This document shows, one piece after another, positions 2,328 to 18,557 of a stretch of DNA of 20,000 nt; positions within the stretch are counted from its first letter, which is position 1, and every line of letters starts with the position of its first letter. The stretch lies in IMG/VR virus record IMGVR_UViG_3300025141_013938; one strand, given 5' to 3'. The DNA comes from an uncultured virus (IMG/VR IMGVR_UViG_3300025141_013938) (Duplodnaviria; Heunggongvirae; Uroviricota; Caudoviricetes). Under the pieces are notes generated by a model. The model did not search any database and was not told the origin of the DNA. It worked only from the letters and a program-made list of their open reading frames with translations. The position numbers were made by a program, and so were the translations under genes.

Positions 2328-3536
2328 GTGAAAGTCACGATACTGAACAGCACACTAGGAACACCGAGGCACCTCGTGCATGACGGAACAGAATTCTCAT
2401 GGGCGTCGAGCATTCCGAGTGACTCGTGGGTCTATCCTGGAGTCTCCGGTCACAGAGACCTGCTACCTATAGCAGAGGCTCTCGGAGAGAAGATATCAGG
2501 ATTTGAAGACACACCGCACGCAGTGGCCTGGGAGTCAATGACAAGGGGAAGGGATGTCAGGATACCATGGATGCATGCCATCCCGCCCGATCAGTTTCAG
2601 AGATACCTCTCAGGCATCCTAGATCAGCTCTGGATGATCATCAGGACAGAGAATGACAGTTACTATATGAATGAATTCGTGATCAACAGAGGGATGCTAG
2701 AGAGCCTCTGTCCGCCCATTGTCGATAAGCTTCTGATAGAGAATTTTTTGATAGACGCGACAGATAAGTCCAGAGCAGACCTTCTAAAGTTTTTACCTGA
2801 TGAAAGTGGACGTGCACCTCACTCGTCTTATACCCAGAGCAACACTGTCACGGGCCGCCTGACAGCCACGAGCGGACCTAATATCCTCACCCTGAAGAGG
2901 AAGTATAGAGGCATGATGAGATCTGAGTTCAAGAACGGATCTATCGTTCAGGCTGACATAGTGTCTCTTGAGCCCAGGATAGCTCTGTGCGTCGCACAAA
3001 AGACTCCACCTGAAGACATATATGACACTATCATGAATGACGTGCTCGGGGGAGAGGTCTCACGGTCGCAGGCTAAGATAGCAACACTCGGGTGCATATA
3101 TGGAATGAGCCCATGGACGCTATCTAAGAAGCTCCCTGAGAGTCTAGATGCCAGAGATATATTAATGAGAATTAGAGACTACTTCGACATACCACATCTA
3201 GAGAGGGGTCTAAAGAGAGAGTTCAGGGAAAAGGGCTTCATTGAAAATATCTATGGAAGAAGAGTTCCTGCCGGAGATGCACTAGTGAATCACTTTTTAC
3301 AGTCCACAGGAGCAGATGCATCTCTCCTAGCATTTAGTATGCTTAAGAGCAAGTTAGATGACCTCAACGCGAGATTTAAACCTCTCTACATCATCCATGA
3401 TGCGATCTTATTAGATCTAGATGCGTCAGCCCTAGCGTCTCTCAGAGAGATAACATCATCTGGTCTAGAGGTGCCAAAATTTAAACAAAGATTTCCTATA
3501 AAGATAGAATTTATAGGCGGAGATAAACATGAATGA
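2328..3536 (+). CDS. Minimal family A DNA polymerase (polymerase domain only)
   Basis: PolA motifs: TVTGRLT..GPNIL, motif A QADIVSLEPR, motif B RSQAKIATLGCIYG, NHFLQSTGAD, motif C IIHDAILL. No recognisable exonuclease motifs. Confidence 0.85.
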   Translation: MKVTILNSTLGTPRHLVHDGTEFSWASSIPSDSWVYPGVSGHRDLLPIAEALGEKISGFEDTPHAVAWESMTRGRDVRIPWMHAIPPDQFQRYLSGILDQLWMIIRTENDSYYMNEFVINRGMLESLCPPIVDKLLIENFLIDATDKSRADLLKFLPDESGRAPHSSYTQSNTVTGRLTATSGPNILTLKRKYRGMMRSEFKNGSIVQADIVSLEPRIALCVAQKTPPEDIYDTIMNDVLGGEVSRSQAKIATLGCIYGMSPWTLSKKLPESLDARDILMRIRDYFDIPHLERGLKREFREKGFIENIYGRRVPAGDALVNHFLQSTGADASLLAFSMLKSKLDDLNARFKPLYIIHDAILLDLDASALASLREITSSGLEVPKFKQRFPIKIEFIGGDKHE

Positions 3537-4166: not shown

Positions 4167-5792
4167 ATGAGCAAAAGATTTAAACCAAGTCCAGTTAAGC
4201 CAGAAATGGGTGTGTGGTCCGGAAGAGGGATCGGCATTCCTGTTGTGGGAGCGATAGGCGGCGGAGATGACTATAAGCAGAAGATAGGTCGTGACAAGAT
4301 ACGGTGGGACCAGACAGGCTTCAAGGGTTCTCCTTCTCTGTCTGCTGACGCTACATACTCTGTATACCTTGCAAGGGTCAATAAGGACTGGGATGAGGAA
4401 TATGAGGCTGTAATGTTTCCCAGTCAAGAAGAGGACGATGTGAATATTTATGATATGGATGTCTCTGCCATAAGAAGCAGAAAGACTCCAAGGGATTTTA
4501 AAGTGAAGCATCCAAGAGCTCTCGGAATATCAGAACGTCACGTCTTTGACGAGAATGATGTCGTCGAGAATAGCCGATATCGTCTCACCCAGGTCACTGA
4601 GGGAATATTTACACAGATATTTGGAGATATAGCAGGAGACATAGGCGCAGCTGCTTTAGCAGCTGTACCACTCTTTGGAGTACCTGCTGCCGCTGGTCTC
4701 GCTGGCTGGAATATAAAACAGCTGAAAGATGACATGGATAATTCTGATGTCGCGATCACCGCATTCTTAAAATCACCAAGTGATGACACAGTTGAGATGA
4801 TGAATGATGAGCTAGATAGCATTACAGTTAACCTGATCGACCTCTTTCAGAGACTTCTCGAGTTAGTTCCAGATGCAGAGTGGCCGATCGGAGAGGCTGC
4901 CAGTGTGATGACATCAATAGTTAATAATCTTGTTAAGCTTAAAAGGGCTCTTCAGGTCACAGGATTAGCCACACCAAAATTTACTCACATGCCGATCGGG
5001 GGCATAGGTCCGACAGGACCAGCCACATCGCTGGCAACAAAAACAGCTGCAAAGGCAAAAGTCGCTGGAATCATCACACCAATACTCAAGTTCTTCATGG
5101 GAATTCTCGACTCTGGAGCTGCACCAAGGGTATTTAGAGATAATAAAGGTGTGATACTTGGAGTTCCGCGCAGGATGATACTTCTAGCTGACCTCATAGA
5201 TGACTATCACATTCAGGAAGACGCAGCAGCAGCAGTTGGACAGGAATTTGTTTATCAAAATAGAATAATCCCTGAGGGGGGCTATAATTCTTATGACTAT
5301 GTGAGATCTCCGATAAGATCAGGTCAGCAAGCTCCTCAACAACAAGCTTTTCGAGTTGAGGATCTAACTTTTTCAGATCCAGCTGCAGCAGTAGCTCACA
5401 TTCAACGACAGCAACAACAAGGACAACAACTATCTTTAGAGGAAAGAACTATGAGAAAAGATATGAAGAATCTAAGAAAATTCATAAGAGAGACAGTTAA
5501 GACAGCGCTAAGAGAGACATCTTATCCAGACTATCCCTCTATGCACCCTCCTAATCCCACAGGATATCAGTTCAGAAATGTTCCTGTTATCGAACCAGAG
5601 TCTCAGCAGGTCGATAAATTTGAAACACTTGATAGCTATGATGACTTCTCTGTCTCATACACAGCTGATGGAGGAGTTGTCAACTACCAGGCGAGGAATA
5701 AGCTTAAGCTCGATGAGGAGAGACATCTCGCTCTGAGAAGGTTAATTCGACAAGATATCGCTGGGATTGTCAAAGAGTCAAAAAAAAAGTAG
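4167..5792 (+). CDS. Hypothetical phage protein, probable internal head/ejection protein; 0-frame part of a putative frameshift fusion
   Basis: 541-aa ORF with Ala/Gly-rich hydrophobic helices, a Q-rich linker and repeated LRxxIR(E/Q) helices. Ends ESKKK on an A9 run followed by TAG TAG. Confidence 0.65.
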   Translation: MSKRFKPSPVKPEMGVWSGRGIGIPVVGAIGGGDDYKQKIGRDKIRWDQTGFKGSPSLSADATYSVYLARVNKDWDEEYEAVMFPSQEEDDVNIYDMDVSAIRSRKTPRDFKVKHPRALGISERHVFDENDVVENSRYRLTQVTEGIFTQIFGDIAGDIGAAALAAVPLFGVPAAAGLAGWNIKQLKDDMDNSDVAITAFLKSPSDDTVEMMNDELDSITVNLIDLFQRLLELVPDAEWPIGEAASVMTSIVNNLVKLKRALQVTGLATPKFTHMPIGGIGPTGPATSLATKTAAKAKVAGIITPILKFFMGILDSGAAPRVFRDNKGVILGVPRRMILLADLIDDYHIQEDAAAAVGQEFVYQNRIIPEGGYNSYDYVRSPIRSGQQAPQQQAFRVEDLTFSDPAAAVAHIQRQQQQGQQLSLEERTMRKDMKNLRKFIRETVKTALRETSYPDYPSMHPPNPTGYQFRNVPVIEPESQQVDKFETLDSYDDFSVSYTADGGVVNYQARNKLKLDEERHLALRRLIRQDIAGIVKESKKK

Positions 5793-5818
5793 TAGCTGTT
5801 GGAGACAGTAATACTGTC
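5780..5818 (+). other. Putative -1 recoding site (A9 run; A_AAA_AAG heptamer at 5783-5789) with downstream hairpin
   Basis: Nine As at 5780-5788 then G; the heptamer is in the correct 0-frame phase; TAG TAG follows; inverted repeat GACAGTA-A-TACTGTC at 5804-5818. Confidence 0.7.
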
Positions 5819-6862
5819 GGAGTCGGCAACAACAATACGTCGTATATAAACCTTCTTGGTGACGACATCGACGTCGGAAAGTTCGCCACAGGCGGTAAGG
5901 CCAGCTTTCAGCTAGGGGGAAAGCTGGCACAGGCCTTGCGAGGTAATCCAGACTATGTTGTAATTTTTGTGGGAATTAATAATCCTATGTCTGAAAGAGG
6001 TTGCTTTGGCAAATTCCCACGAAAAGGCACTGGGTTCACAGAAGAGTCTTGGGTGGGTGATGTAATTAATGACCTGAGGTCATATTATGCTAAAGTAAAA
6101 AACAGGGGACCACAGCTCGACCCGCCAAAGGAGATAAGGGTCATAGGAATTACTTTAGTTCCTGCTGTAGGGCGCTGGAGTAAAAAATATGATAAATGTC
6201 TAAAGAATGATCCATATGGGATAAAGTCAAGCAAGGGTGATGTCATAGATCTCGAAGATAAGGGTCAAAAGGATTGTTATCGATTACGATGTGATGCTTT
6301 AGAGGAGCGCGAGCCGGGAGTATTTACAGTCAAGCGTCCAGGTGAGGGACTCGAAAGACGTAATCCGAGTATTCTTCTCGCGCAAACTAAAAGGGTTAAC
6401 GATTGGATACGATCAAATGCTGACATAGTCATCGACGCTGCGTCAGCATTAAGTGATGAGAGTGGTATCTTACCAGCTTATGATAGTGGTGACGGCATTC
6501 ACCTAAACAATGCTGCACACCAGTGGATCGCTAGAGAGATTAGTAGAATAGTTGGACCTACTGTGGCAATAGATGATGCTGTAGAAGACAATGATGATCC
6601 TGACGATATCGTGAGAGAGTCAAAAGAGGGCGCTGATCATCCTGGTAAGTCATGTGAGGAGTCTCATCCTGAGGTGTCACATGATGACTGGGTTGAAGAC
6701 CAGGCTAATGAGGTCTCTGGTGCGGGAGGAATTGCTGGAGTTATCCTTCCACTTGGAATGTCTGCACCGTCACATGGAAGAAAGAGAAAGCCAGCTTGGC
6801 AGGCTGCAGGATCTGGATTCGCTCGGGCGACACCGGTCGGCGACATAAAGTGGAATAAATAA
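5789..6862 (+). CDS. SGNH/GDSL hydrolase (esterase) domain plus acidic/His-rich C-terminal module; reached only via the -1 frame of the upstream ORF
   Basis: Frame of the 5936 ORF extended upstream reads VVAVGDSNTVG (block I, Ser at 5807) ... FATGG ... VVIFVGINN (block III) ... GDGIH (block V, 6488-6502). No ATG/GTG/TTG between the in-frame TGA at 5714 and the GDS motif. Confidence 0.8.
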   Translation, partial: VVAVGDSNTVGVGNNNTSYINLLGDDIDVGKFATGGKASFQLGGKLAQALRGNPDYVVIFVGINNPMSERGCFGKFPRKGTGFTEESWVGDVINDLRSYYAKVKNRGPQLDPPKEIRVIGITLVPAVGRWSKKYDKCLKNDPYGIKSSKGDVIDLEDKGQKDCYRLRCDALEEREPGVFTVKRPGEGLERRNPSILLAQTKRVNDWIRSNADIVIDAASALSDESGILPAYDSGDGIHLNNAAHQWIAREISRIVGPTVAIDDAVEDNDDPDDIVRESKEGADHPGKSCEESHPEVSHDDWVEDQANEVSGAGGIAGVILPLGMSAPSHGRKRKPAWQAAGSGFARATPVGDIKWNK

Positions 6863-13903: not shown

Positions 13904-13925
13904 CATAGTTATGCTTAGAGGCAAC

Positions 13926-14309
13926 ATGGCATACTCAAAAAAGGTCCTAGATCATTTTAAAAATCCCAAAAATATAGGATCTTTAGATAAAAATGATAAA
14001 AATGTAGGAACGGGAATTGTCGGAGCGCCTGAGTGCGGTGATGTAATGAAGCTACAAATTAGTGTAAAAGATTGTTGCATAGTTGATGCTAAATTTAAAA
14101 CATTTGGATGCGGTTCAGCAATAGCTGCATCATCACTTGCAACAGAAATGATAAAAGGTCGTACATTACAAGAAGCATCAACTCTCAAAAATACAGAAAT
14201 CGTTGATGAGCTCAGCCTCCCACCGGTGAAAATACACTGTTCTGTTCTAGCTGAAGAAGCTATCAAGTCAGCTATTGAGGACTACAGGAGCAAGAATGAT
14301 GAAGGGTGA
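13926..14309 (+). CDS. iscU: Fe-S cluster scaffold protein IscU
   Basis: MAYSKKVLDHFKNPKNIG, GAPECGDVMKLQI, FKTFGCGSAIAASS, LPPVKIHCSVLAE; start placed at ATG 13926 (SD AGAGG). Confidence 0.95.
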   Translation: MAYSKKVLDHFKNPKNIGSLDKNDKNVGTGIVGAPECGDVMKLQISVKDCCIVDAKFKTFGCGSAIAASSLATEMIKGRTLQEASTLKNTEIVDELSLPPVKIHCSVLAEEAIKSAIEDYRSKNDEG

Positions 14310-14315
14310 TATAGA

Positions 14316-14645
14316 ATGTCAATAACAATGACAGAGAATGCAATAAGGGCAGCATCAGATGCAGTAAATGATGATGACGCACACCCGATCGGCTTGCGAG
14401 TAGCAGTAGTCGGCGGCGGATGCTCAGGATATTCTTATGGCCTTGACTTCGTTGAAGACGATGATATAGATGAGGATGATTCTCAGCTAAAATTTGGTGG
14501 CTTAACAGTCTATCTCGATCCCCACAGCGCGCAGATGCTCGGCGAAACCGAGATCGACTACGTCGAAACACTCCAGAAGAAGGGCTTCGTGTTTAACAAC
14601 CCGAACGCGAAGACAACCTGCGGCTGCGGCTCGAGCTTCAGTTAG
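14316..14645 (+). CDS. iscA: A-type Fe-S carrier, IscA/ErpA (HesB) family
   Basis: LRVAVVGGGCSGYSY and FNNPNAKTTCGCGSSFS with all three conserved Cys. Confidence 0.92.
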   Translation: MSITMTENAIRAASDAVNDDDAHPIGLRVAVVGGGCSGYSYGLDFVEDDDIDEDDSQLKFGGLTVYLDPHSAQMLGETEIDYVETLQKKGFVFNNPNAKTTCGCGSSFS

Positions 14646-14653
14646 CTAAAAAC

Positions 14654-15256
14654 ATGAAATGGACAACTAAAGTATCTCATCTTATTAAAGAGGTTGAGCT
14701 CAGAAAAAATCCTATAATTGTGACAGTTAATAAGTTTGACGAAAAATCTGCAAAAGAGTTTCAACAGCAGATATCTATGGCACATAACACAGGTCAAAGT
14801 GTGATTCCAGTTGTGATTGATTCATACGGTGGACAAGCTTACAGCTTAATGTCTATGATTTCCGCTATAAAGCATTCAGAGATACCAGTTGCAACTATTG
14901 TTGAGGGCAAGGCGATGTCATGTGGAGCAATTTTATTCTCTTTTGGTGAGGACGGTCTCCGTTTTATGGACAGCGATGCAACGCTCATGATTCACGATGT
15001 CTCATCTATGGAGCGTGGAAAGGTTGAAGAGATCAAAGCGTCTGCAGAAGAAACTGAGAGGCTTAATCAGATTGTCTATAAGATGATGGCTAGAAACTGT
15101 GGTAAGAAAGACGATCACTTTCTAAAGCTTGTTCACAAGAAGGGACATGCAGACTGGTTTTTAAATTCAGAAGAAGCTAAGAAGCATAACCTAGCAAATC
15201 ACATAAGAATCCCTAAGATTAACATTAATATTGCAGTTGACATAGACTTTGAATAA
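14654..15256 (+). CDS. ClpP-family serine protease
   Basis: IDSYGG, GKAMSCGA (Ser), LMIHD (His), ADWFLNSEEAK (Asp region). Confidence 0.85.
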   Translation: MKWTTKVSHLIKEVELRKNPIIVTVNKFDEKSAKEFQQQISMAHNTGQSVIPVVIDSYGGQAYSLMSMISAIKHSEIPVATIVEGKAMSCGAILFSFGEDGLRFMDSDATLMIHDVSSMERGKVEEIKASAEETERLNQIVYKMMARNCGKKDDHFLKLVHKKGHADWFLNSEEAKKHNLANHIRIPKININIAVDIDFE

Positions 15257-15268
15257 TAGGAGTTTAAA

Positions 15269-15505
15269 GTGACACAAAGAGAAATAATAGAAGAGTTTGT
15301 AGAAAAACTCATAAGAATAGAGAATGAAAAAAAGCTTCTCCAAGATGAGCAAAAAGATCTATTTACGTCTTATAAGGACACACTTGATATAAAAGCAATA
15401 AGGGCAGCTATTCAAATAGCAAAAATAAAGTCTAGGCTCGGCGATTCTGAATACGCAATGGAAGATATGCTAGACACTGTAGAAAAGAAAATATCACTTT
15501 CTTAA
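15269..15505 (+). CDS. Small DNA-binding protein, GapR/DUF2312 (T4 DsbA-like) family
   Basis: 78 aa; EEFVEKLIRIENEKKLLQDEQKDLF...LDIKAIRAAIQIAK resembles the family pattern; GTG start with SD AGGAG. Confidence 0.65.
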   Translation: MTQREIIEEFVEKLIRIENEKKLLQDEQKDLFTSYKDTLDIKAIRAAIQIAKIKSRLGDSEYAMEDMLDTVEKKISLS

Positions 15506-15518
15506 GGGAGAAAGACTG

Positions 15519-16460
15519 ATGGATAAAGACTTTTATAATAAGTCAAGCTCTGACAGCCTCGGGTGGGACCCATCTTGGTTCGGTTGCGAAGAGTTTGACG
15601 TGAATTTAGTGAATGCCGTTCAAAAGTGGCAAAGAAAAAATGGATTAACAGCTGATGGTCTTGTTGGGCCTATGACGTATAGGCGCGTGTGGACAGAGAG
15701 AGAAGCTAATATATCAGATTCATTTCCATCGCTGAAAAGCTATAGAGGCGGTGATAAGCATATTGTTCATAACGGACATTTTATTCCAATTGAGTGGACT
15801 AAAGTGATTCTCTGGGATGAATCTACAGGGTTCAAGTCAAACAAAGGATGCTACACTGACTATTCTGGAAAGCCGGATAGAAAGCCTACATTTTTTGTAA
15901 ATCACTGGGATGTGTGCTTAAGTTCAGCATCGTGTGCAAAAGTTTTAAACAAAAGAGGAATATCAGTTCACTTTCTTATTGATAATGATGGAACAATTTT
16001 TCAGACATTAGATACACAGCATAAAGCGTGGCACGCGGGTATTCCAAGATATGAAGGTGGGAACCCTAAGGGAATCGGTGTAGAAATTAGCAATGCATAT
16101 TACCTCAAGTATCAAGACTGGTATGTCAATCACGGATACGGAAAACGACCAATTCAGGAAAATGGATTAGTTCACGGAAGGGTGAGAGCTCCATTTTTAG
16201 ATTTTTATCCCATACAGATCGAAGCTCTGAAAGCATTATGGAAGGCAATTCACGTTGGGCTCGAAATTCCGCTAGAATATCCAAAAGATTTAAATGGACA
16301 ATTTGATACTGGGCTTAATAAGGATTGTGAGAGAGGAAAGTTTCATGGATTCTGTAATCACTATAACTTCATTAAATCAAAAATTGACTGTGCTGGACTA
16401 GACCTACCAGAACTTCTAGAGGACGTAAAAAACACACCTGACTATTGTTTAGACAGCTAG
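15519..16460 (+). CDS. Modular endolysin: peptidoglycan-binding domain + N-acetylmuramoyl-L-alanine amidase (Amidase_2)
   Basis: AVQKWQRKNGLTADGLVGPMT (PG-binding); VNHWD, SVHFLIDNDGTIFQ, AWHAG, GVEISN, NHYN...KIDC (Zn ligands H/H/C). Confidence 0.85.
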   Translation: MDKDFYNKSSSDSLGWDPSWFGCEEFDVNLVNAVQKWQRKNGLTADGLVGPMTYRRVWTEREANISDSFPSLKSYRGGDKHIVHNGHFIPIEWTKVILWDESTGFKSNKGCYTDYSGKPDRKPTFFVNHWDVCLSSASCAKVLNKRGISVHFLIDNDGTIFQTLDTQHKAWHAGIPRYEGGNPKGIGVEISNAYYLKYQDWYVNHGYGKRPIQENGLVHGRVRAPFLDFYPIQIEALKALWKAIHVGLEIPLEYPKDLNGQFDTGLNKDCERGKFHGFCNHYNFIKSKIDCAGLDLPELLEDVKNTPDYCLDS

Positions 16461-16468
16461 GAATATTT

Positions 16469-16888
16469 ATGTCTGCATATTGGCAAACTATGAAACTATT
16501 ATCTACTCATTTATGTAAGACGAGCGATATAGGATTTCACGGAAATTTATTTGGAGGTCAATTATTAGCGTGGCTTGACGAGGCAGGAGCTGCTCTCTCT
16601 GCAGAATTTGCAGAGACAGGACGCATAGTCACAAAGCATATCTCTGAGGTGAACTTTCAAAGCCCTGTTAGACCTGGTCAGCTCATTAAAATTTATGGAA
16701 AAATTAAAAAGGTTGGGAATACTTCTTTAACTTTAGAAGTAGAAGCAAGAAGACATAGCATATATAATGGAACTCAAAAACCTGTATGTAGGTGTGAGAT
16801 GACATTTGTTAGAATAGACGGAGACGGAGAACCAGTACCAATTCCTCCTCACATCCACAAAAAATTTGAAGATACCAGCGCTGAGTAA
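16469..16888 (+). CDS. Hotdog-fold acyl-CoA thioesterase (YciA-like)
   Basis: DIGFHGNLFGGQLLAWLDEAG, VNFQSPVRPG, VGNTS, MTFVRID..GEP; start at ATG 16469 (SD AGGA) or 16490. Confidence 0.85.
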   Translation: MSAYWQTMKLLSTHLCKTSDIGFHGNLFGGQLLAWLDEAGAALSAEFAETGRIVTKHISEVNFQSPVRPGQLIKIYGKIKKVGNTSLTLEVEARRHSIYNGTQKPVCRCEMTFVRIDGDGEPVPIPPHIHKKFEDTSAE

Positions 16889-16954
16889 TTTAATTTAACT
16901 TATTTTTTAAAATTTGATACAAAATAAGCATGCTTGTTTTTCTTTGTGTAATGA

Positions 16955-17290
16955 ATGCTTAATAGATTCTTCATTTTCATGTTAGGATTTATAGTAGTTT
17001 CAAATTTAATAGATGCAATTGCAACAGCTGTCTGGGTTAACATGGGGCTAGCAACTGAATTTAATCCTCTCATGGCAGGAATTTTAGACTCAGGTCCGGG
17101 AAAATTTATTTTAATTAAGATGATTTTAATTAATTTATGTGTCTATCTTCTCTGGAGGTTTAAAGATAAAAGTTTATCAAAGTGGCTTGTCACACCAGTT
17201 TTTCTTATTTATACTTATATACTTCTTATTCACCTCTATATTTTATCACAGGCCTTAGGTCCGTGGAGACATCTTCATGCATTATCATAG
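16955..17290 (+). CDS. Small membrane protein, DUF5658-like
   Basis: About three hydrophobic segments; D.IAT...G.ATEFNPLM...FILIK pattern. Confidence 0.6.
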   Translation: MLNRFFIFMLGFIVVSNLIDAIATAVWVNMGLATEFNPLMAGILDSGPGKFILIKMILINLCVYLLWRFKDKSLSKWLVTPVFLIYTYILLIHLYILSQALGPWRHLHALS

Positions 17291-17323
17291 ATAAACTAGG
17301 CTATAAAATGATGATCATCAGTG

Positions 17324-17329
17324 TATAAT
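17324..17329 (+). promoter_or_regulatory. Consensus -10 (TATAAT) just before the glycosylase ATG, possibly leaderless
   Basis: TATAAT ends 5 nt before ATG 17335; no SD. Confidence 0.4.
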
Positions 17330-17334
17330 ATTTT

Positions 17335-17754
17335 ATGTGGATACCCCCTAAGTCTCCTTATAATCTTATTCAAGAACATCTTTGGGATGATCCTTGGAAG
17401 ATTTTTGTTGCATGTATATTTTGTAATCTAACCAGAAGGGTAGATGCAGAACCCTATATATGGAAATTTTTTCAACACTATCCTAATGAATATCACGCTG
17501 CAAGTGCTAAGATAGAGGAATTAAAAAATATGATCAAACCTCTAGGTCTATCAGAAAGACGATCTAAGGCCCTTATTAATATGTCTGATGATTATATCAA
17601 GAAGGACTGGCGGAGTTCACCAGATGTTCTCTATGGGATTGGTAAGTATGGCTCAGATGCTTATCAGATATTCTGTGAAGGAAAGTGGAGAGAAGTAGAG
17701 CCAGCAGATCATGCTTTAAATGATTATCACAAATGGCTCGAGGAGCGAAAATGA
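17335..17754 (+). CDS. MBD4-like HhH-GPD DNA glycosylase (catalytic domain only)
   Basis: WIPPKSPYNLIQE..WDDPWK..ACIFCNLT, KPLGL..RR, LYGIGKYGSDAYQIFC, EPADHALNDYHKWL parallel the vertebrate MBD4 glycosylase domain end to end (recalled, not aligned computationally). Confidence 0.85.
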   Translation: MWIPPKSPYNLIQEHLWDDPWKIFVACIFCNLTRRVDAEPYIWKFFQHYPNEYHAASAKIEELKNMIKPLGLSERRSKALINMSDDYIKKDWRSSPDVLYGIGKYGSDAYQIFCEGKWREVEPADHALNDYHKWLEERK

Positions 17755-18557
17755 ATAGAGAAGAAGAGAAAGAACTATTTTTAAATTTAAGAGACGAAGA
17801 GAAAGAACTATATAATGATTTTTTCTTCAAGGCCAGTGATGACTTCACAATGTGGCGAGACGGAGAAAAAACATATAGCAAGGATGAATCAAAATTAGGA
17901 CGTGACTGGATTTATATCTATCAGGATAAAAAAGCATTTGAAGTCTTAACGTATCTCAGAAAATCAGCTGAGCAAGAATTGAAAATACTTGATGTAGGAA
18001 GTAAATTCTATGCTGCTCTATTTTTTTCTGCTATTGGAAGAACCATGTATCTGGAACCTAGAATGGAGGATATATTCGGTGGTCAGTGGCCCTTCTTCTC
18101 GCAGCTAAATATGGGATTTATTAAAGGAGAGGCTCAGGACATAGCAGCACCCGATAAATCTTTTAATGTAGTAACATGCCTTCACGCAATGGAACATTTT
18201 GGACTTGGAAGGTATGGAGATACAATAGACTATTATGGTGATCAAAAAGGATTAAGAGAATTTAACAGAGTCCTAGACGATAATGGACATCTCATTCTTT
18301 CTGTACCTGTAAATGAAAATGCTCGGATAGATTTTAATGAACAGAGAGTATATAACCCTGATATGGTTGATGAGATGCTAGATAACGCTGGGTTTAAGGT
18401 GTTATCTAGAATCTATATCGTATCGCTAGGACTTCTGCGGGGTCATGATGGTGAAATTTTTGAGCCGACATCAAATGATAGAAAAATTTTACGATGTGTC
18501 AAGGAAGATCATCAGGCCGCATATATGACGTTATCAACTAAAATAAGAAACTTCTAA
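17751..18557 (+). CDS. SAM-dependent methyltransferase-like protein, DUF268 family
   Basis: ILDVGS (motif I), CLHAMEHFGLGRYGDTIDYYGD, LILSVPV...FNEQRVY; start moved to ATG 17751 (SD GAGGAG, ATGA overlap with the upstream stop). Confidence 0.75.
   Translation: MNREEEKELFLNLRDEEKELYNDFFFKASDDFTMWRDGEKTYSKDESKLGRDWIYIYQDKKAFEVLTYLRKSAEQELKILDVGSKFYAALFFSAIGRTMYLEPRMEDIFGGQWPFFSQLNMGFIKGEAQDIAAPDKSFNVVTCLHAMEHFGLGRYGDTIDYYGDQKGLREFNRVLDDNGHLILSVPVNENARIDFNEQRVYNPDMVDEMLDNAGFKVLSRIYIVSLGLLRGHDGEIFEPTSNDRKILRCVKEDHQAAYMTLSTKIRNF
17757..17811 (+). repeat. 22-nt direct repeat at 33-nt spacing inside the CDS
   Basis: AGAGAAGAAGAGAAAGAACTAT (17757-17778) and AGAGACGAAGAGAAAGAACTAT (17790-17811); encodes REEEKEL / RDEEKEL. 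Confidence 0.8.

Follow-up and report, generated by a model that had tools for sequence, protein, structure and literature searches.

On the heptamer A_AAA_AAG, -1 ribosomal frameshifting in Escherichia coli dnaX and in IS3-family elements depends on a Shine-Dalgarno-like element upstream and a hairpin downstream, and in the G/GT genes of phage lambda, immediately 5' of the tape-measure gene, slippage takes place on a heptamer of the G_GGA_AAG type. A reading frame may also be changed during transcription: bacterial RNA polymerase slips efficiently on nine A or T, and dnaX of Thermus uses such slippage (PMC5009743; this source and PMC3296357 are cited here from extracts). Frameshifts at the 3' ends of genes extend phage capsid or tail proteins, often by immunoglobulin (Ig)-like domains, as in gene 10 of T3 and T7, Lactobacillus phage A2 and the Listeria phages A118, A500 and PSA, and slippage gives Shigella spa13 a C-terminal extension of 112 residues (PMC5009743). 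Here we describe a gene from an uncultured virus of the Caudoviricetes (IMG/VR record IMGVR_UViG_3300025141_013938; 'the window' denotes the whole stretch analysed, 20,000 nucleotides long). Its open reading frame (ORF) of 541 codons, encoding the protein P0001, ends on a run of nine A residues, and an SGNH/GDSL esterase domain follows that can be read only in the -1 frame. Comparison with homologous loci makes it very probable that some programmed frame change takes place at this run. For a fuller reading the case is a little better than balanced: the run would be a conserved programmed slippage site giving products of 541 and about 898 residues, most likely by slippage of the transcribing polymerase, and the SGNH domain would have been captured upstream of an older C-terminal tail.

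The 541-codon ORF ends ...GAG TCA AAA AAA AAG TAG TAG. An initial annotation of the window had drawn attention to this ending, to the A9 run with its in-phase heptamer and to a start-less continuation in the -1 frame, and its description holds in each respect when the sequence is translated and its start codons listed (Table 1). Just past the TGA at 5714-5716 the -1 frame opens; it runs to its stop at 6860-6862 and translates as ...RVKKKVVAVGDSNTVG...FVGINNPM...DGIH... (also given as ...KKKVVAVGDSNTVG...); the extension itself starts VVAVGDS..., and ATG, GTG and TTG are absent between 5717 and 5935. Joined at the run, the two frames would give a long product that is probably of 541 + 357 = 898 residues, with the predicted transframe peptide ...ESKKKVVAVGDSNTVG... 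across the junction. The 20-kb window contains no other run of at least nine A and no run of at least nine T.

Table 1. Coordinates of the recoding locus within the window
Feature	Position	Strand	Remark
Zero-frame gene of P0001 (541 residues, short product)	4167..5792	+	ORF
TGA, last -1 frame stop 5' of the slip site; limits the frame-change window	5714..5716	+	
A9 run, proposed slippage site	5780..5788	+	exactly 9 bases
A_AAA_AAG heptamer, in phase with the zero frame of ORF 4167-5792	5783-5789	+	
-1 frame extension, 357 codons and stop, readable only after a shift	5789..6862	+	
SGNH/GDSL esterase domain (predicted)	5789..6541	+	block I GDS at 5801-5809; block III GINN; block V DGIH
Tandem zero-frame stops TAG TAG, immediately 3' of the slip site	5790..5795	+	
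Inverted repeat GACAGTA-A-TACTGTC, overlapping the GDSNTV codons	5804..5818	+	
TTG used by ORF finders for a 308-residue ORF; codon 74 of the -1 frame	5936..5938	+	
Acidic linker (..DDAVEDNDDPDDIVRESKEGADHPGKSCEESHPEVSHDDWVEDQ..)	6542..6685	+	
Conserved family tail (..GGIAGVILPLGMSAPSHGRKRKPAWQAAGSGFARATPVGD..)	6686..6859	+	tail hidden Markov model (HMM)

The first part of the extension is recognisable. Pfam Lipase_GDSL_2 (PF13472) matches the -1 frame with an E-value of 1.2e-15 (58.9 bits against a cut-off of 32.9), and Lipase_GDSL (PF00657) does so with 31.8 bits against 23.6, aligned from profile position 1. Both models begin at residues 25-27 of the -1 frame, that is at VAVGDS and base 5789, immediately past the A-run, which bears out the proposal of the initial annotation that a domain boundary falls at the slip site. 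SGNH blocks I (GDS), III (GxN) and V (DxxH) are all present and aligned with those of relatives. A structure model has a predicted local distance difference test (pLDDT) score of 58.7 overall and of 70-91 in the core, its first beta strand being formed by extension residues 2-6; in Foldseek it matches carbohydrate acetyl-esterases and other SGNH enzymes with a probability of 1.00, with modest template modelling (TM) scores (0.2-0.55). The region is a complete SGNH/GDSL hydrolase domain, predicted to act as an esterase.

Could this domain be an independent gene that starts at TTG 5936 or at a non-canonical codon? ORF finders do call the 308-residue ORF, and the more distant SGNH relatives are independent genes. 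As the initial annotation had already remarked, however, the called ORF is devoid of the block I GDS serine, and since its product would be without the nucleophile, TTG 5936 is unlikely to be a true start; a simple scan found no promoter-like site between 5792 and 5936; and the tail in which the ORF ends belongs elsewhere to the upstream gene, either as a shifted continuation or as an in-frame fusion. We give independent expression next to no chance. Read-through of the TAG was also considered and rejected: beyond TAG TAG the zero frame reaches a TAA after about 20 codons, with no SGNH or tail coding there.

Since homopolymers are error-prone and one base would restore a single ORF, the split might also stem from faulty assembly or sequencing, or from the recent loss of one nucleotide that inactivated a continuous 898-residue gene. 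Exactly nine A residues are found, however, in four assemblies of the window's lineage. One is G001, the nearest IMG/VR record; L002/L004 and L003 are two further IMG/VR contigs with other metagenome identifiers; and the fourth is a Logan contig of run X4, which covers 5752-6048 uninterruptedly and so bridges the A-run (Logan contigs of four runs were compared, the remaining three covering parts or relatives). Because the four assemblies agree, we reject an assembly artefact, a possibility that the initial annotation had raised. A word-indexed search with the upstream protein returned 19 homologues, all of 484-547 residues and none near 898, so that the homologues are not the plain in-frame fusions that a recent inactivation would imply; the SGNH and tail frame is open and conserved at 52-55% identity, and the same broken arrangement recurs in 32 lineage groups. 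Error and pseudogene formation are thus largely refuted, and we hold them very improbable.

To place the locus in its family, we compared the DNA of its homologues. An alignment of the upstream protein retrieved 25 viral and 52 metagenome loci (77 in all), giving 78 sources with the window. The C-terminus of the homologue is present in 68, and in 60 of these 68 it ends on an uninterrupted run of A9 to A12. Among the 60 run-bearing loci the tail lies in the -1 frame in 54 and in the +1 frame in five; in the last of them the sequence breaks off just behind the stop. The other eight have no A9-A12 run in the last 70 nucleotides of the ORF and carry a tail in frame; one of them, L073, has an A9 slightly farther upstream, at the homologous ETKKK junction. 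Loci were assigned to one lineage group when both 100-nucleotide flanks were at least 95% identical, which yields 32 groups: the run is of 9 bases in 11 groups, 10 in 13, 11 in six and 12 in two, and in none is it shorter than 9. The broken arrangement extends down to about 30% protein identity. The +1 configuration, seen in five loci of four lineage groups, is maintained in diverged lineages (L041 versus L043/L044; L026; L074).

At the protein level, each member of a 14-sequence alignment of P0001 homologues ends ...ESKKK followed by zero to three residues, and an exhaustive profile search recovered 136 representative clusters at 50% identity. A tail HMM built from nine other loci matched 67 stretches in 65 ORFs, among them residues 324-376 of the window's own -1 ORF (E 2e-11). 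The tail is 60-100 residues long and consists of an acidic linker, a motif small-x-[IV]-[AG]-G-x-x-x-P-[LM]-G, a second Gly-rich element and a basic end. Ahead of it the shifted ORFs have no ATG, GTG or TTG, except that L074 has a single TTG. A TAA made up of the base preceding the run and the run's first two A's closes the -1 frame in eight lineage groups; in those groups a shift into the -1 frame must therefore happen inside the run, or within the few bases before the zero-frame stop.

That the tail belongs to the same polypeptide is indicated by relatives in which no shift is needed. The C-terminal domain is reached by 83 family representatives; 63 end within 10 residues of it, and 20 continue in frame with the acidic linker and tail. 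One tail type (..KKFY.DME.AYHGKIIG..) is in frame in L027, L028, L059, L069 and L070 and in the -1 frame behind an A9 in L072. On this comparison the tail is a genuine peptide, probably part of the same polypeptide as the upstream protein, and the ancestral arrangement appears to have been main protein, A-run and shifted tail of 60-100 residues. The proposal of the initial annotation that recoding joins the 541-residue protein to the SGNH frame gains from the run-bearing homologues, which keep the A-run, a nearby stop and a shifted continuation without a start.

Three further features of the junction and tail may be recorded. The stop at the homologous position is usually TAG; after the A-run it is nearly always so, with A or G as the next base, and in the -1 frame the same bases read xTA GAx (Leu, Val or Ile, then Asp or Glu), so that one stretch of bases encodes both the stop and the extension's first residues. 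The shifted extension of L043 (5757-6749) is of 317 residues and runs into what appears to be the next gene (..MNKLMEGWNAY..); as the near-identical L044 (5757-6050) ends after the tail's basic end, an apparent insertion or deletion in the A/G-rich basic end of L043 seems to have fused that gene. L006/L032 (5389-5617) and L031 (5389-5616), again near-identical, differ by a second frame break within the tail, at GRKRR/GKKKK. The A-rich stretches of the tail may thus vary too, or may be mis-assembled.

The run is retained beyond what the lysines would demand. Counted over 35 distinct loci, lysine codons away from the site are AAA and AAG in equal measure (510 to 512), whereas at the site AAA outnumbers AAG by 96 to 8 and the few AAG codons all sit at its 3' edge. 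Elsewhere in these genes, KKK tracts are broken by AAG in 14 of 15 cases, and the in-frame relatives without a long run have mixed Lys codons at the equivalent positions. In 34 of the 35 loci, no stretch of nine or more A occurs apart from the junction run. The site is kept by selection at the nucleotide level, beyond the needs of the protein. The exception, L019, has a second such run at 5932, at the very start of a RecA/UvsX-like gene.

A frame change of this kind need not occur during expression. If the length of the run varied in the DNA itself, by replication slippage in the manner of phase variation, genome sub-populations with A9 (short product) or A10 (fused product) would coexist and assemblies would report the majority. 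Relatives with the tail in the -1, the +1 and the zero frame are compatible with this, as are the insertions and deletions in other A-rich stretches of the tail in near-identical contigs (L006/L032 versus L031; L043 versus L044); Logan contigs of two runs break 13-18 nucleotides upstream of the A-run, which proves nothing by itself. Run length is nevertheless equal in all 60 locus pairs in which both flanks are at least 95% identical, across several metagenomes, and is nine in all four assemblies of the window's lineage, although minority variants would still be compatible with a stable consensus. We regard variation at the DNA level as improbable.

If the frame change is programmed, it could take place in transcription or in translation, and of these we favour transcription. 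Standard decoding would end at the TAG at 5790 and give the 541-residue product. RNA polymerase would realign on the A9:T9 hybrid and add one A in some transcripts, and a fraction of expression would thereby move to the -1 frame inside the run, giving a protein of about 898 residues that comprises the 541 residues, the SGNH domain, the acidic linker and the tail. Slippage on the run as a whole is favoured because the runs are never shorter than nine, the length that suffices for efficient slippage of bacterial RNA polymerase (PMC5009743), because the base after the run (G, T or C, most commonly G) and the phase of the run vary among loci, because some lineages call for a +1 shift, because L073 has an in-frame A9, and because no downstream structure is conserved: the mean z-score of folding over the family is -0.26, with only two of 29 loci below -2. 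Ribosomal -1 slippage or sliding on the lysine codons AAA AAA AAG may contribute. Sliding of ribosomes over consecutive AAA codons is a further possibility.

The initial annotation had pointed both to transcriptional slippage on A9 runs and to classical -1 ribosomal frameshifting of the dnaX/IS3 type. In the latter, transcripts are faithful and tRNA-Lys on AAA AAG slips on A_AAA_AAG, helped by the stop, by a helix at 5789-5833, or by both. The heptamer is there, in phase and with TAG TAG directly behind it; a hairpin lies 15 nucleotides downstream; a -1 shift is what 54 of the 59 homologues with a shifted tail require; and G is the commonest base after the run. The inverted repeat, considered as a stimulator, is likewise present, but folding of 5770-5860 gives a z-score of only -1.11, with 25 of 200 shuffled sequences equally stable, and together with the lack of conserved structure elsewhere this makes it probably not a stimulator. 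For a Shine-Dalgarno-like element, inspection by eye of the 24 nucleotides upstream of the run in 29 loci revealed no conserved GGAGG-like sequence, no formal scan having been made. Seven bases would serve a slipping ribosome, yet the run is never shorter than nine; T or C follows it in several lineages, and its phase differs; and the five +1 loci, as well as the A9 of L073 with its tail in frame, do not fit a -1 heptamer. On these grounds ribosomal frameshifting is a serious though rather unlikely alternative, and slippage on the run as a whole is the more probable of the two.

Several points weigh against programmed transcriptional slippage with capture of the SGNH domain. What supports the shift itself is sequence comparison. 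The window has the classic heptamer with its adjoining stop, and as every run of at least nine A holds a usable heptamer, sequence alone cannot separate slippage of RNA polymerase from slippage of the ribosome. Since some assemblies are present in both the IMG/VR and the metagenome collections, the loci and pairs are not all independent. Finally, the closest SGNH-bearing relatives (P0021 and P0022/P0002, see below) were compared as proteins.

How, then, did an esterase come to lie behind the slip site? The two closest SGNH relatives, P0021 (55% identity) and P0022 (52%), combine SGNH domain and tail in a single ORF whose called start lies downstream of the GDS motif. P0002, a homologue of P0001 with 73% identity that ends ESKKK, and P0022 are each recorded on one 15,107-nucleotide contig, presumably the same one. 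More distant SGNH relatives are independent genes with their own ATG, beginning M..K[IV]VAVGDS. P0107, a 98-residue fragment 91% identical to the end of P0001, reads ESKK-VV-TGEDESSEDIVRESKEG... and has the window's linker without an SGNH domain; it is used here for that absence only, its in-frame ESKK-VV junction not being taken as evidence on run length. These relationships suggest that the SGNH domain is an insertion nested between slip site and family tail in one small clade, that of the window, which would have captured an SGNH gene at this point. With the domain captured behind the slip site, the esterase would be made only within the long isoform. A scan of viral contigs with an SGNH alignment for further loci of this kind found the window's own lineage only. 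The initial annotation had spoken of a recoding-controlled slot for enzymatic cargo; the ancestral extension was apparently the 60-100-residue tail, and as SGNH is the only kind of cargo observed, the idea of a slot is only weakly supported. Among the stand-alone SGNH relatives, P0024, P0025, P0027 and P0028 (517-520 residues) carry a further conserved region of about 300 residues at their C-terminal end (..LLKPGPNGW..HDIMAHIQH..).

What can be said of the protein that carries the extension? The AlphaFold model of P0001 (pLDDT 64.4) has a disordered yet highly conserved N-terminal part of 140 residues, a confident helical bundle at 145-357 and a C-terminal hairpin and helix. Pfam and PHROGs assign no family to P0001 or to 32 diverse relatives apart from four marginal matches, one of them a weak tape-measure match (E 2.4e-4) in P0161, and the Pfam scan of P0001 contains no AAA+ match. 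Foldseek of the model against PDB and BFVD gave no match at E<=0.001, sequence and profile searches of PDB with the carrier gave no meaningful match, and in the ESM Atlas the carrier matched unnamed viral clusters only (best score 0.78). Seven tail peptides gave nothing in PHROGs below an E-value of 0.05. Among cultured phages, no relative was found by DNA comparison, nor by tblastn with P0010 in 50,697 phage records; the best cultured-phage match of the neighbouring RecA/UvsX is 36% identical.

In the window and in all four other loci compared, the order is an ORF of 650-750 residues without a family, DNA polymerase A, an HD-like protein, the carrier, a gp32-like single-stranded DNA-binding protein, RecA/UvsX and a 5'-3' exonuclease, the last identified by scanning in the window and L010 and represented by an ORF of similar size at that position in L007, L014 and L019; the HD-like neighbour matches Pfam HD below the cut-off in the window and in L019, and has no match in L007. 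From this position the carrier may be a replication protein. The initial annotation had taken it for a probable virion protein, which neither the gene's place in a replication module of a T4-like myovirus, flanked by HD phosphohydrolase and gp32 genes, nor the family, fold and atlas searches support; its view that this is not a frameshift of the tail-chaperone type is sound, the neighbours being replication genes with no tape-measure gene adjoining.

Further observations concern the surroundings. The DNA polymerase A gene of the window (2328-3536) encodes only about 400 residues, the polymerase domain, and the ORF of 650-750 residues precedes it in every locus examined. Upstream, G001 carries a T4-like tail module with a gp15-like sheath stabiliser, two sheath paralogues, a tube protein and a baseplate hub. 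The two sheath paralogues, adjacent and unusually long (1062 and 1014 residues; L082, 2069-8334), are followed by the tube protein, a gp26/T4_baseplate-like hub and three large ORFs without a family (813 residues, 1223 residues and the window ORF 12-2276). Downstream of the carrier, Pfam identifies at 14654-18557 a ClpP-like protease, an Amidase_2 protein with a peptidoglycan-binding domain, a 4HBT thioesterase, an HhH-GPD-like protein (below cut-off) and a methyltransferase. About 8 kb downstream of the slip site, at 13911-14645, lies IscU (NifU_N, E 2.6e-50) beside an IscA-like Fe-S assembly protein, and in G003, the contig of L019, IscU lies about 7 kb downstream of the junction (C1:58512-58883). 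IscU competes with TusA for IscS, and thiolation of tRNA-Lys restrains frameshifting in lambda (PMC3296357). It is pure speculation that phage IscU and IscA could alter the thiolation of host tRNA-Lys, and with it the rate of frame change on lysine codons.

Set beside the systems described at the outset, the locus comes closest to two of them, dnaX of Thermus thermophilus and the 3'-end frameshifts of phage proteins. With dnaX it has in common a homopolymer of nine and a setting among replication genes and, if the shift takes place, products with a shared N-terminus, independence of an RNA stimulator and usable frames after either insertion or deletion. In dnaX, however, the zero frame encodes the long tau and slippage truncates the product (PMC5009743), whereas here the zero frame would give the short product and slippage would add up to 357 residues; nor is the carrier a clamp-loader subunit or a member of any recognisable family. 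With E. coli dnaX and the IS3 elements the window shares the identical in-phase heptamer, but downstream structure is neither significant nor conserved here, and what the family conserves is a run of at least nine rather than a heptamer. The 3'-end frameshifts of phage capsid and tail proteins resemble it in the minority long form with an extra domain that is predicted here and in relatives that are -1, +1 or in frame, as for Ig-like extensions (PMC5009743); the present carrier differs in being no recognised capsid or tail protein, in lying among replication genes and in using a long homopolymer, and its cargo is a catalytic SGNH esterase placed before a conserved tail, not an Ig-like domain. 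The spa13 extension is close in size to the ancestral tail, though spa13 is a bacterial secretion-system gene of unrelated sequence. As in lambda G/GT, a phage gene would undergo a conserved -1 shift close to its 3' end that sets the ratio of two products, but the carrier lies between HD and gp32 genes, with DNA polymerase A and RecA/UvsX nearby, and has no chaperone similarity. A search of the open full-text literature found no account of this family, nor of an SGNH domain added by frameshifting in a phage. New in relation to known recoding would be the carrier, its genomic context, the obligatory long homopolymer and the nested catalytic domain.

The comparison adds to known recoding a well-supported and phylogenetically deep family (32 lineage groups, 136 protein clusters at 50% identity) from phages known only from metagenomes, the product of which gene callers systematically split or truncate. 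The natural series from A9 to A12, in -1, +1 and in-frame arrangements, offers a test bed for the effects of homopolymer length and context on slippage ratios. An enzyme domain, it appears, can be put under recoding control: where annotation pipelines report a 308-residue esterase without a nucleophile, the real product is probably an 898-residue fusion. A conserved two-isoform carrier among replication genes merits experimental study. As a tentative extension of these results, less probable than the reading of the locus itself, a lineage of uncultured T4-like marine myoviruses may switch between two isoforms encoded by a conserved gene of the replication module, by transcriptional slippage on a poly(A) run of nine bases or more; the tail would then be a docking module, the junction would have been an entry point for an enzyme at least once, and the SGNH domain would be present only in the rare long isoform. 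If that is true, these viruses would follow a logic like that of tau and gamma from dnaX, with the product lengthened rather than truncated.

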